The notes below the pieces were generated by a model, which searched no databases, had not been told where the DNA came from, and was given only the letters and a program-made list of their open reading frames with translations. This document shows positions 24,785 through 53,507 of a DNA stretch of 64,000 bases, piece after piece. The position numbers and the translations under genes were made by a program. The stretch is from Promethearchaeati archaeon SRVP18_Atabeyarchaeia-1. GTDB taxonomy: Archaea > Asgardarchaeota > Atabeyarchaeia > Atabeyarchaeales > Atabeyarchaeaceae. The stretch is taken from assembly GCA_037308085.1 (NCBI GenBank), contig CP147779.1, positions 1,504,001-1,568,000 on the forward strand, written 5' to 3'. The first letter of the stretch is position 1. Each line of letters begins with the position of its first letter.

Positions 24785-24971
24785 ATGGGTGCGGAAGGAA
24801 ATCATGCTTGGAAAAGGTTCGTGTTGCATGAACATAGGGCCAAAAGGGCCGGGCTGCATTATGATCTAAGGTTAGAATGGGATGGTCAGTCAGTAATGTC
24901 CTTCGCAATGCGCCACTCCCCTCCGACGGAGTCCGGGGTCAAGCGACTTGCCATAGAGCAACCGCTTCACA
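24785..24971 (+). pseudogene. ligD: LigD 3'-phosphoesterase (PE) domain gene, 5' piece
   Basis: RFVLHEH..LHYDLRLE..PPTESGVKRLAIEQPLH. Confidence 0.88.
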
Positions 24972-25226
24972 GGGGCGCTGCGAGGCAGGGCAGGCTGCTC
25001 GTTGAGGTCGATCCCAGGCACACGTCTCTGTCGTGCCCCTACTGTGGATACACAGGTAGGTCGAACCAGGTTGGCTACTCCTACTTCAGGTGCAGGGCAT
25101 GCGGCTTCGAGGCGAACCGTGACCGCTTGGCGAGCCTCAACATCGCCCTCAGGGCGGCCCAAACAAAAGACACATCCAGCACCTACAAGATGGGCCAGTT
25201 TCCTGGGGGGAGCGCCTCCGTCAGTA
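24972..25226 (+). mobile_element. tnpB: IS200/IS605 tnpB 3' fragment (left part)
   Basis: VEVDPRHTSLSCPYCG..FRCRACGFEANRDRLASLNI; continues in frame at 51639 once the island is removed. Confidence 0.85.
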
Positions 25227-25382
25227 CGTGCTGACAATTGCTGTGTGTCAGTAGGCAACCTTCCTTTCTAACTCCTGCAGCTTACTCATGCGCACCCAAT
25301 GGGGGTTGATATGTCTTATTACACTGAGCTCTAAGCACCCATTGCTTCGGATGATTCGCATAAGGTTACTTATCGCATCTTT

Positions 25383-26231
25383 TCATAGTTCCGTGTCCTT
25401 TTCTCGTGATTTGCTCCAAAGGTAGAACCAAGCTCCGGCGTTAAACCTCGCTGCCGGCAGATTTTTGTCTCTTATCTCTTTGTTCATCATGGAGAACGCA
25501 ATCTTCGCTATCCAAGTGTCGATAGGCTGCCCGTATATCTGATCGTCGATCGAGATCTTCGCCTCCAAATCATAAAGCAGTGTTATGTCTCTCAGCAGGA
25601 AGGATGATATTTTTGGTCCAATGGAGACGATGGAATTTAACTGATTGTAAGCTTTCTCGATATCGCCCTCTTCAATCATTCTCTTGCAGTATTTGACAAT
25701 ATTTCTTTCCGGGATCTCAGTAGCAAACGAAAGCAAATTCAAGACCATCAATCTATCCCTTTCCCTTCCAGTGCTGTTTTCCGTACCAGAGCGTCCTTTC
25801 TCCAGTTCTTTGATGATTGGGTTTCCCCTCGCTACTTCTTCTTGGTAGATCTTATGGGCCTTCTTTTTCTTCTTGTGGGTTTTCACGTACTTGTCAAATG
25901 ATGCCATGTCAAGAAATCCTTGCTTCTTCAAACTGTTAATTCTATCTTCGATCTCCGCGTTGATGTTACCGAAGAACCTCTTCAGGATTGCGAAGGTGCT
26001 TGACTCGAACTTTGAAGACAACTCATCCCTTCTTCCTTGCGCAAAGCATCTTCCGCAAAAGAACCTGAATGCGATCCACCAATCATTCAGCAGGCTTCTG
26101 TTGGTCCATCCCTTCCTCTTGATCTCCTCGTCCAAGTTGATCCTCTTGTACTTGTTCCCGTACTCGGCGACCTTGTCGAACCCCATTTTCAAAATGTCCT
26201 CAACTTCGAGAACCGATTTGTCCATATACAC
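25383..26231 (-). CDS. HhH-GPD-like DNA glycosylase/AP lyase
   Basis: HhH SIVSIGPKISSFLLRD (Lys) and QPIDTWI (Asp). Confidence 0.65.
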   Translation of the reverse strand: MYMDKSVLEVEDILKMGFDKVAEYGNKYKRINLDEEIKRKGWTNRSLLNDWWIAFRFFCGRCFAQGRRDELSSKFESSTFAILKRFFGNINAEIEDRINSLKKQGFLDMASFDKYVKTHKKKKKAHKIYQEEVARGNPIIKELEKGRSGTENSTGRERDRLMVLNLLSFATEIPERNIVKYCKRMIEEGDIEKAYNQLNSIVSIGPKISSFLLRDITLLYDLEAKISIDDQIYGQPIDTWIAKIAFSMMNKEIRDKNLPAARFNAGAWFYLWSKSREKDTEL

Positions 26232-26326
26232 ACCTCCAAATAGCCTCGAAACGTCACGCTAACTGTGCATGAACAGTTATGCCGAACACCATTGGGGACT
26301 CTTGGTGAATGTTCGAGTGAGGATCG

Positions 26327-27112
26327 CTAGTATCTGGATCTGAGTTCTATTACTATCCTATTGGATTCCTCAGCATATCTCAAGGCAAGTTGGGAAACCC
26401 TATCTCTGTCGCATTGCGAACCTCTTCGACACGAGTAGAAGGGTTCATAGAATACTCTCGAACCTCTGCAGCACTGCCTAACCTCAGAGTTGGGAATTCT
26501 TAGGATCTGGCTGACTCCACTGTGATGACGTGGCCTTCCGGGATACGTCTCCCCACTTGACCTGGCTAGGAGTTCTTCTATCTCGCTAACCATTAAGAAG
26601 CAGTCAAGGGGTGGTTTGACATTCTCATCTACCATAAGGTAGTATGCGCTTCTCCAATACTGGCGGAACCTCGCGAGCTGGTTTATGTCTCTCTCTCCAA
26701 ATTCGAAGAAATCCTTAGCCCTGTTGCGCTTCGTCTGCACTGCTGTGACTCCCCTAGTGACGCGGCTTACTTCCTTCGAAATGAAAAAGTCAGCTCCTGT
26801 AAGTCTTTCTCCCCGGCCTGGGTGGAATATCCGTTTGCTGACTGTCACCCCACTAGTTTCGAATTTCCAAATTGGCTCCAGCCCTGCATCTCCTTGCAGG
26901 TAATCCTGCCTAGGCACGGTTCCAATCTGAGCCGCTTGTATAATAACTTGCCTGAATATGTGTTGCGACTCATCTGGCATTGCCTTATTAAATGCCGCAA
27001 ACCCAGTAACGAAGTGTTTAATGTCGCTGACAACACCTTCATTATCGCGTTTGAACTCGGATATCTTACGGTCTTCTACATCATGGAAAACGTTCTTTCG
27101 GTCTGCGTCCAA
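26327..27112 (-). CDS. PD-(D/E)XK-like nuclease
   Basis: ERLTGADFF ... AVQTKR (E-D-QxK variant). Confidence 0.6.
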   Translation of the reverse strand: MDADRKNVFHDVEDRKISEFKRDNEGVVSDIKHFVTGFAAFNKAMPDESQHIFRQVIIQAAQIGTVPRQDYLQGDAGLEPIWKFETSGVTVSKRIFHPGRGERLTGADFFISKEVSRVTRGVTAVQTKRNRAKDFFEFGERDINQLARFRQYWRSAYYLMVDENVKPPLDCFLMVSEIEELLARSSGETYPGRPRHHSGVSQILRIPNSEVRQCCRGSRVFYEPFYSCRRGSQCDRDRVSQLALRYAEESNRIVIELRSRY

Positions 27113-51638: not shown

Positions 51639-51727
51639 GGCGCGTTTGGCAAGGTGAAGGGTTTGAAACGACAGCGTCAAACAACCCCGAGTTGCAAGCC
51701 CACAAGCTCAAGCGGTGGGTAACTGAT
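51639..51727 (+). mobile_element. IS200/IS605 right end (rest of the tnpB 3' end / omegaRNA region)
   Basis: AAGCCCAC-AAGCTCAAGCG-GTGGGT-AACTGAT subterminal hairpin typical of Y1-element right ends. Confidence 0.8.
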
Positions 51728-51768
51728 GGGAAGAAAGCGCCAATTTTGAGGGTACCATTCAAGAGGGA
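51728..51768 (+). pseudogene. ligD: LigD phosphoesterase gene, middle piece
   Basis: Encodes (R)EESANFEGTIQEG. Confidence 0.85.
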
Positions 51769-53342
51769 AACGAGCTGTTCGGATGGACTGTATAAATAGA
51801 TGCAACTACATGTAGGTGAATGTGGAACGGCTATGCTCTTCCAGGGAAGCGCCCTTAGTTGCTTGGGTGCCTGCGTCAAGGTCATGCAGGGCGGGGACAG
51901 AGCAGGCAGGAGCCCTGCGAGAAGCCACAAGGACCGAGAAATTACGAGGCGAATAGGAAGCTTCTCCAATCAGTCAAGGAGGCGGGACTATCAGCACCGC
52001 AGTTGCAGCAGCAGATCCAGGGAAGCATCATAGGTGGAAAACTAGAGAAGGCGAAAAGAGGACCATCGCAGTAGAGTACCAGCCATCCAGTAGCATGCTC
52101 AAATACCTTGAAGATATGAAGGACGCATTAGTGGCGTTTCTCGCCCAGGCATACGCCTCAGCCAAGATAAGCGGCCGCCTCTTGATCCCCAACCCGGTTG
52201 CGCTGAGGAGGAGGGTGAAGCCTTGGTTCGACACCCGCTATGAGTATGCGAGGCACCACGTCAATCCTCTCTGCAGGACGGCCGTGGCGCTCCTACGGTC
52301 GTACAGGAAGAGGCATGGGAGACTCGCCATGCCCCAGGTCAGGAGGCTAGCCATGAGGATCGACTCCGAGCTCTTCCGCCTCACACTGAACCCCGGCGGA
52401 AGCGTGACCGTCAGGGTCACCCTGAAGCCTTTCACCTACGAGTATATCACCTTCATTCCAGGTCACAAGAAGTGGAGCGAGTACAGCGCTGCAGGGGAGG
52501 CGTGCGAGATCCTGTTGACGGACAGGAAACTCTGCGTCACCTTCGCCCTAGGGCGTAGTAGCGGGAAGCCCCTGGCTGCGAGGCTGGCTGGTTTGGACCT
52601 CAACTTTCACAGCGCAGACTCCTCAGCGTTCAGCAGCGGTAGCATGGGGCTGGAGTCACCTCACACCAACTCCCTTAACAGGGTGGTGCAGGTTCAGAAC
52701 GACTTCTCGAGGAGGCGGAGGCGCATCCAACTGCACGTCAGGAACCCGGGGAAGAGAGAGAGGAAGCTTGAGGAGACGAGGGGCAGACAGAGAGACAGGG
52801 TTAAGGATGCGCTCCACAAGCTGTCAACCAGGATCGTCCGAGAGAACCCTGGCACATCATTCATCTTCGAGGACTTGAAGGGCATTAGGCAGGGAAGACG
52901 AAGAGGCCGGCATGATCGGGCAGGCGGTAGGAGGCTGAGGACGTACCTGAACCGCTGGCCCTACAGAGCCTTCCAGAGCATGGTGGAGTACAAGAGCCGG
53001 TGCAGGACGCTGTACGTTAGCCCGAGGGGGACCTCATCGAAGTGTCCCGTCTGCGGTGGAAAACTTGAGCACCCAGCTTGGGCAATAAGCAGATGCAGAA
53101 CATGCGGCGTGGACTACGACCGGGACAGGCTCGCCTCCCTGGCGATACTCCAGCGCGGTCTGCGCCTATGCGGCCAACCGTTTGCCGTGAGTGCGGCTGC
53201 CTCTTGGCAGCAGATGAGGAGTGAATACCTGTACACCCCCGGAGTGCCCAAGGCCGGGGGAGCAGGCGGGACCAAGCATGCTGCCAACGCACCGAATAGA
53301 AGTGCGGCCAACCTCCACGAATTTCCACATTTCTAGAAACGG
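51768..53342 (+). mobile_element. non-autonomous IS607-family element (internally deleted tnpA + tnpB)
   Basis: GG(A) at both junctions; TATAAATA at 51791; TnpA relics VERLCSSREA..LGACVKVMQGGDRAG and ARSHK at ~51816-51960; right end CTAGAAAC|GG. Confidence 0.85.
52095..53336 (+). CDS. tnpB: TnpB RNA-guided endonuclease (RuvC triad intact)
   Basis: AGLDLN, IFEDL, CPVCG..CRTCG, DRDRLAS. Confidence 0.9.
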   Translation: MLKYLEDMKDALVAFLAQAYASAKISGRLLIPNPVALRRRVKPWFDTRYEYARHHVNPLCRTAVALLRSYRKRHGRLAMPQVRRLAMRIDSELFRLTLNPGGSVTVRVTLKPFTYEYITFIPGHKKWSEYSAAGEACEILLTDRKLCVTFALGRSSGKPLAARLAGLDLNFHSADSSAFSSGSMGLESPHTNSLNRVVQVQNDFSRRRRRIQLHVRNPGKRERKLEETRGRQRDRVKDALHKLSTRIVRENPGTSFIFEDLKGIRQGRRRGRHDRAGGRRLRTYLNRWPYRAFQSMVEYKSRCRTLYVSPRGTSSKCPVCGGKLEHPAWAISRCRTCGVDYDRDRLASLAILQRGLRLCGQPFAVSAAASWQQMRSEYLYTPGVPKAGGAGGTKHAANAPNRSAANLHEFPHF

Positions 53343-53343
53343 A

Positions 53344-53507
53344 TATGGCGCAGGAGAGCTCAAGATAGTGGACTCAGGCCAGTATGGTTTGCTAAAGGAG
53401 AGTCAAACGAGCTCATAATTATCCTCAAAGGATCAACCCTGAACGGCACCTACGTGATGATAAGCACCGGAGAACACAAGTGGCTCATGTTCAAGAAGAA
53501 AAGCTAA
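53344..53507 (+). pseudogene. ligD: LigD phosphoesterase gene, 3' piece (one frameshift)
   Basis: YGAGELKIVDSGQY..(frameshift)..LKGSTLNGTYVMI..WLMFKK*. Confidence 0.88.

Follow-up and report, generated by a model that had tools for sequence, protein, structure and literature searches.

The window analysed here, a 64,000-nucleotide stretch covering positions 1,504,001-1,568,000 of the closed 2.81-Mb genome (49.6% GC) of the Asgard archaeon SRVP18_Atabeyarchaeia-1, contains the remains of a stand-alone LigD-type 3'-phosphoesterase (PE) gene that is now divided among three separate pieces. Our reading, to which we assign a probability of about 0.88, is that a gene for a PE of about 121-130 amino acids has been irreversibly inactivated by four lesions. 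The split gene itself is real. Its 392 bp are found at the positions listed below, and they contain no intact reading frame, being interrupted by two insertion sequences (ISs; here IS#1 and IS#2) and by a 1-bp deletion.

24785-24971, plus strand: PE pseudogene piece 1, comprising 62 full codons (1-62) and the first base of codon 63
51728-51768, plus strand: PE pseudogene piece 2, (R)EESANFEGTIQEG, unique in the genome, placed by in silico joining and by alignment to the orthologue in a same-genus genome (G001)
53344-53507, plus strand: PE pseudogene piece 3, its frame shifted by a 1-bp deletion at about 53407/53408

Piece 1 alone (24785-24970, 62 amino acids) matches positions 1-46 of the Pfam family PF13298 (LigD_N; E 2.4e-10) at 41 bits, clear of the curated cut-off of 31.1, and aligns to the G001 gene; in a six-frame scan of the whole genome with PF13298, the split locus was the sole match. 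A preliminary description of the window had joined the three pieces into a complete LigD PE. The end-to-end match has stood up, but a literal join from 51729 breaks the frame and piece 2 has to start at 51728, while piece 3 carries a 1-bp deletion that had been missed. The frame of piece 3 stops after ...KESQTSS, and the conserved C-terminus goes on in another frame (...ELIIILKG...KKKS, then a stop). With piece 2 taken from 51728 and an N placed at the deletion, the corrected join gives a 130-amino-acid product that covers positions 6-126 of the 126 in a profile of 13 PE homologues, the close G001 orthologue among them, at 142.8 bits. The H-x6-FEG spacing of this product, described earlier as canonical, is the same as in its relatives.

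The empty sites, like the anatomy of the locus, its junctions and the family assignments of proteins and ends, were observed directly. The preliminary description proposed a search for an uninterrupted allele in related genomes, and G001 has one: a 121-amino-acid PE gene at L015:8297-8662, between the same flanking genes. Its nucleotides align to 24827-24971 of the window and then to 53341-53501, the 38-bp stretch between the two alignments corresponding to piece 2, and its neighbours on both sides match the window flanks 21094-22211 and 53632-54439. With this uninterrupted syntenic gene, both IS insertions have their empty site, and misassembly is made less likely. Metagenomes contain a conserved family of stand-alone PEs of about 121 amino acids, to which the joined window protein belongs, sharing 66-74% identity with its members. 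Piece 2 had no exact match in a scan of metagenome contigs, and near-identical records may lie outside that collection.

The first insert, between pieces 1 and 2, had been described as the 3' fragment of an IS605 tnpB gene. The fragment is indeed there and matches PF07282, but it is part of a longer structure: IS#1 is a TnpB element of IS200/IS605 type with an internal deletion, in which the tip of the left end (LE), the 3' part of tnpB and the right end (RE) survive.

24972-24985, plus strand: IS#1 LE tip, 14 nucleotides (GGGGCGCTGCGAGG), matching the LE consensus nnGGCGCTGCGAGG/AAGCCCAC of the full copies and followed by internal tnpB sequence
24986-25226, plus strand: IS#1 tnpB 3' fragment (zinc-ribbon/TNB part), PF07282 E 1e-14
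51639-51727, plus strand: IS#1 RE (guide-RNA scaffold region with CCCAC/GTGGG subterminal hairpin), from alignment and fold
24785-25234, plus strand: chimeric open reading frame (ORF) of 149 amino acids, composed of PE N-terminus, LE tip and TnpB C-terminus

Full copies of IS#1 elsewhere in the genome are about 1.35 kb long and encode a TnpB of about 410 amino acids as their sole product. They have a CCCAC...GTGGG subterminal hairpin at LE and at RE, of which the window copy retains only the one at RE. In 7/7 copies the sequence directly left of LE is TCACA (once TCACG), the right flanks are unrelated and there is no target duplication; piece 1 of the PE gene finishes with precisely this target motif (24967-24971). 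The window copy lacks the LE hairpin and about 1.0 kb of 5' tnpB sequence, with the deletion joint at 24985/24986 being ambiguous within 24976-24986 owing to a GCTGnGAG microhomology. As the LE hairpin is gone, the deletion occurred in place. The remaining tnpB 3' fragment shares 85-89% identity with the 3' ends of tnpB at four other places in the genome. Over 96 bp, RE and the copy at genome 2605490-2605585 are 100% identical; the last base of RE is T in the window and C in seven other copies.

IS#1 resembles the TnpB-only elements of the IS200/IS605 family (IS1341 group; ISDra2/IS608 type) in its subterminal hairpins, whose stem is the same at both ends, in the fixed short motif (TCACA) 5' of LE without target duplication, and in a tnpB gene that runs into the guide-RNA region at RE. 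It differs from them in that no copy of the subfamily carries tnpA and in that the window copy has lost about 1 kb, including the LE hairpin, and is split by an integrase island. We found no Y1 (HUH) TnpA gene in IS#1 or next to its paralogues, and three Y1 tnpA genes elsewhere in the genome. At least three other IS#1 copies are internally deleted (genome 2605482-2606094, 2212989-2214018 and 831722-831987); such deleted derivatives, common and similar to miniature inverted-repeat transposable elements, keep the LE hairpin and the RE, whereas the window copy is without the LE hairpin.

The deletion has left its mark on the annotation. The chimeric ORF, predicted in the preliminary description as a misreading by ORF callers, is listed as a called 149-amino-acid protein with PF07282 and PF13298 in an NCBI-sourced collection, and its stop codon comes from the first bases of the island that follows. 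The LigD_N + TnpB "protein" is thus a pseudogene artefact and not a genuine fusion.

The long sequence within IS#1 is an integrated island, as the preliminary description had it.

25227-51638, no strand assigned: integrated defence island, 26,412 bp counting one copy of the 8-bp core (51631-51638)
50258-51547, minus strand: Xer-like tyrosine recombinase (integrase), PF00589 E 2.3e-18 over profile positions 4-170 of 172

In four IS#1 copies that are intact, the 3' end of tnpB (to 25226) leads directly into RE (from 51631), the 8-bp CGTCAGTA being common to both. The same 8 bp flank the island as a direct repeat, at 25219-25226, where they follow the left arm of a hairpin at the end of the tnpB fragment, and at 51631-51638. 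The IS#1 parts on either side are different and nonoverlapping, having only these 8 bp in common. The site is the loop of the short hairpin GCGCCT-CCGTCAGT-AGGCGC, located where tnpB ends and the guide-RNA region starts. At 46.0% GC the island lies below the genome as a whole (49.6%), and its cargo includes an OLD-like AAA_15+TOPRIM protein, HEPN, an nSTAND3 NTPase and a C5 methyltransferase with a HhH-GPD glycosylase, alongside several unassigned genes. The integrase gene starts 84 bp from the right att core, and its best NCBIfam match is of XerA type, at a score under that model's cut-off.

The arrangement is not restricted to the PE locus. A second island, at about genome 1.64-1.663 Mb, occupies the same position in another IS#1 copy and has an integrase that is 91% identical. 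Across the genome, about nine left halves and about eight right halves of the hairpin site abut foreign DNA and six IS copies are uninterrupted. The inserts, including those without an integrase, have in common an AGTAGG(C) about 23 nucleotides inside the left end and its complement, (G)CCTACT, about 27-33 nucleotides inside the right end. The occupied left junctions are at genome 831986, 1642482, 1644639, 1709109, 1710334, 2213709, 2232326 and 2542353 and the occupied right junctions at 714473, 1663360, 1711391, 1936874, 2213074, 2543275 and 2768487. At least four kinds of insert are hosted at this position, among them integrase-less ones of about 0.6 and about 0.9 kb, and some sites appear to be tandem or nested, with two left halves per right half. 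Besides the integrase end, the sole sequence common to the two islands is a segment of 560 bp (window 35431-35989), 92.5% identical to genome 1654560-1655118. The window island also contains a second, truncated C5-methyltransferase-like segment (36648-37674 compared with 48902-49932, 69% DNA identity to the full Dcm-like gene), in which ORF 36877-37461 matches PF00145 positions 92-169.

In its layout the island follows the attachment logic of lambda-type tyrosine-recombinase integrative elements and defence islands, including archaeal elements reported for Atabeyarchaeia (PMC11529989): it has an integrase gene at one end, is bordered on both sides by a short direct repeat, can be compared with an empty attB and carries defence genes as cargo. 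Unlike in the usual elements, the attB is a hairpin in a multicopy TnpB IS and not a tRNA gene or another single-copy gene. That study describes 14 integrated elements in the Atabeyarchaeum deiterrae group 1 genome; of the 18 elements that it counts in both Atabeyarchaeia genomes, two are "defense islands". Its main text makes no mention of TnpB, ligase or pseudogene. Among 40 related genomes the integrase has only distant relatives (39% and 46% identical in G002, 31% in G024), none of which adjoins an IS#1-type end, so that targeting of the hairpin is documented within this genome only.

The second insert, about 40 bp farther on and earlier called an IS607-type element, consists of the following parts.

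51769-53343, plus strand: IS#2, 1,575 bp, the boundary being ambiguous by a shared GGA
about 51822-51930: 5' relic of the IS#2 tnpA, about 100 nucleotides, aligning to the start of the HTH-resolvase tnpA at G001 L022
52095-53336: IS#2 tnpB, intact, 413 amino acids, PF07282/PF01385

Six other copies of IS#2 are found in the genome, 72-89% identical. The left flank has GGG in 7/7 genome copies, the six copies with a right end finish in ...AACGG (...TAGAAACGG), and GG is found at both junctions wherever both ends are present. This agrees with the published rule for IS607, a (G)GG target and GG at the element end (PMC6188088). The serine-recombinase tnpA is absent from the window copy save for the relic of about 100 nucleotides (sum E 3e-6, in a tiny search space), so that neither IS#1 nor IS#2 carries a transposase here. 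At G001 L022, a relative with a 69% identical TnpB and the same right end has a frameshifted HTH_17+Resolvase tnpA directly upstream of tnpB. Given this relative and the relic, the evidence supports the call of IS#2 as IS607-type, in the form of a tnpA-deleted derivative. NCBIfam naming of its TnpB does not separate IS605 from IS607 types.

Like the IS607 family, IS#2 shows the (G)GG target, the GG at its end and no inverted terminal repeats, and upstream of tnpB its same-genus relative has a tnpA whose product combines an HTH at the N-terminus with a resolvase catalytic domain; unlike the family, its own tnpA is deleted except for the relic. A further difference lies in the junctions, which we compared at window 51760-51780 and 53335-53350, at genome 750.8, 1177, 1332, 1735.6 and 1995.6 kb and at G001 L018. 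In 7/7 copies (six from this genome and G001 L018) the right flank begins with the same base that follows the left GG. The two positions after that agree in 4/7 and 3/7 copies, so that, in the copies examined, identity reaches 1-3 nucleotides past the GG of the published rule. Resident resolvase-type elements (genome 1.500, 1.259 and 1.970 Mb) were considered as mobilisers of IS#2 in trans; their TnpB and ends differ from those of IS#2, and they thus give no direct evidence of such mobilisation.

The three element types of the preliminary description have accordingly been found as named: an IS200/IS605 type with hairpins and TCACA, an IS607 type with GG junctions and a tnpA relic, and a tyrosine recombinase with PF00589. 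That description had the gene struck by all three. The three inserts are nested or adjacent as described, but only two hit the gene, the island having targeted the hairpin of IS#1.

The layered structure suggests a history. A TnpB-only IS#1 of about 1.35 kb would have entered just 3' of the only TCACA in the gene, presumably through a Y1 TnpA acting in trans. The 26.4-kb island with its Xer-like integrase would then have recombined into the hairpin loop of IS#1, leaving the 8-bp CGTCAGTA repeat. At a probably later stage, IS#1 lost about 1 kb in situ at the microhomology, comprising the LE hairpin and most of tnpB, and this deletion joined the N-terminus of PE and the C-terminus of TnpB in one frame, creating the 149-amino-acid chimeric ORF. 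Independently, the tnpA-less IS#2 would have inserted at a GGG 40 bp downstream, and one base would have been lost from the last PE piece. In this proposed order two points are fixed, namely that IS#1 preceded the island and that its deletion happened in place; the enzymes assigned to each element are those that its ends and relatives suggest.

Several observations weigh against parts of this reading. Among 182 PE homologues none is an intact allele from the same species, the best being 74% identical, and the junction between gene and IS#1 is ambiguous by one base, giving a restored codon of either AGG or TGG. The integrase would act at the hairpin judging from anatomy and repetition only, and its 39%-identical relative in a sister-genus genome does not stand next to an IS#1-type element. 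The junction identity past the GG of IS#2, finally, could come from a 5-bp GGNNN duplication that has since decayed, from a longer crossover or from a preference for certain targets.

The preliminary description had seen in the PE gene a landing pad for mechanistically distinct elements. An insertion hot spot that draws different elements through features of its sequence or structure, or through RNA-guided homing, would fit two independent IS insertions 40 bp apart in a 392-bp gene, with an island in addition. We nevertheless consider it unlikely. The target of the island is the IS#1 hairpin, and the island therefore followed the IS and not the gene; about nine other IS copies were targeted likewise, by this island or its relatives. 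When the 46 TnpB loci of the genome were placed uniformly at random, some pair fell within 400 bp in about 25% of the trials (P about 0.25), and TnpB loci cluster elsewhere too, for example between 1.949 and 1.971 Mb of the genome, where seven TNB-domain matches lie within 22 kb. Both target motifs are common, TCACA occurring 1.7 times and GGG 26 times per kb, and the PE gene has one TCACA and ten plus-strand GGG. The G001 orthologue, moreover, is uninterrupted. The insertion cluster is best explained by neutral accumulation in an already dead gene, and relaxed selection after the first insertion is sufficient to explain the pile-up.

Two further readings concern the split as such. Repeat-induced misjoins could have put unrelated segments between the gene fragments, and the region is rich in multicopy IS sequence. 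Such an artefact is highly improbable, considering that all six junctions fall exactly at element boundaries, that removal of the inserts restores one ORF, that the IS#1 parts beside the island do not overlap apart from the common 8 bp, that both flanks are syntenic with one G001 contig, and that the genome is a single closed 2.81-Mb contig matching a manually curated complete genome. The flank synteny and the exact junctions support the assembly order as far as sequence comparison can. A regulated split gene, in which excision of the inserts restores a working PE under some condition in the manner of developmentally excised elements, is barely credible even though the island, having an intact integrase and clean att repeats, may still excise. 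Its excision would leave a crippled IS#1 that, having no LE hairpin, makes Y1-type excision implausible; IS#2 is without a transposase, and the 1-bp deletion would stay in piece 3. For these reasons, PE function is not restorable by excision, and we retain the reading of a gene inactivated for good.

What the intact gene did is less clear than its family. The gene shares domain, length and fold family with the structurally characterised CkoPE (3p4h), MbaPE (3p43) and PaePE (3n9b), and for the G001 orthologue the matches to 3p43 and 3p4h have E about 1e-19/1e-20. The joined protein and its subfamily keep the equivalents of His42, His48, Asp50, Arg52 and His84 (PaePE numbering; PMC3300020), but the full catalytic set, which also includes Tyr88, is incomplete, as the window protein and all its close relatives have Ser where Tyr88 would stand. 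Tyr88 is reported to be important for both PE activities (PMC3300020). Unlike the three reference enzymes, the whole subfamily of about 121 amino acids (the G001 orthologue, P0002-P0016 and the window gene) also has Pro at the Glu82 position and a 2-amino-acid insertion between the two His metal ligands. Again unlike the references, the window copy is a pseudogene and its host genome lacks Ku: we found no Ku gene in the genome, which has two ATP-dependent ligases and is without any intact PE gene. The earlier label of a "DNA end-repair gene" is thus right as to the LigD PE family and uncertain as to function, the Tyr88 and Glu82 equivalents and Ku being missing; going by these residues, the subfamily may not be a standard 3'-end-healing enzyme.

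Some features lie beside these subjects. Between the left syntenic block and the PE gene, a segment of about 2.6 kb (window 22258-24700), absent at that spot in G001, holds an HpaB-like 4-hydroxyphenylacetate 3-hydroxylase gene (23197-24648) and two small ORFs. The IS-rich zone at genome 1,949,000-1,971,000 also has a Y1 tnpA and a broken resolvase tnpA. Elsewhere, AATTAACTTAT occurs exactly twice in the genome (2590417 and 2601284), 10,867 bp apart, which agrees exactly in length and att motif with the Yucahu-i element described for A. deiterrae group 1 (PMC11529989).

What is seen at the PE locus is a neat but ordinary pile-up of mobile elements in a dead gene and no special landing pad. It illustrates clearly, in an Asgard archaeon, how mobile elements come to lie in layers. 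The idea that the PE gene attracts elements is corrected, the large island having arrived by targeting the IS. The wider and more interesting lead is the TnpB IS hairpin as a multicopy docking site for integrase islands. We lean towards the view that TnpB ISs serve as portable attachment sites, each new IS#1 copy bringing along a hairpin for islands with Xer-like integrases and for small integrase-less inserts. If this is true, the chromosomal entry points open to defence islands would be set by IS transposition, and the PE locus would be one place where this two-step route has been caught in the act.

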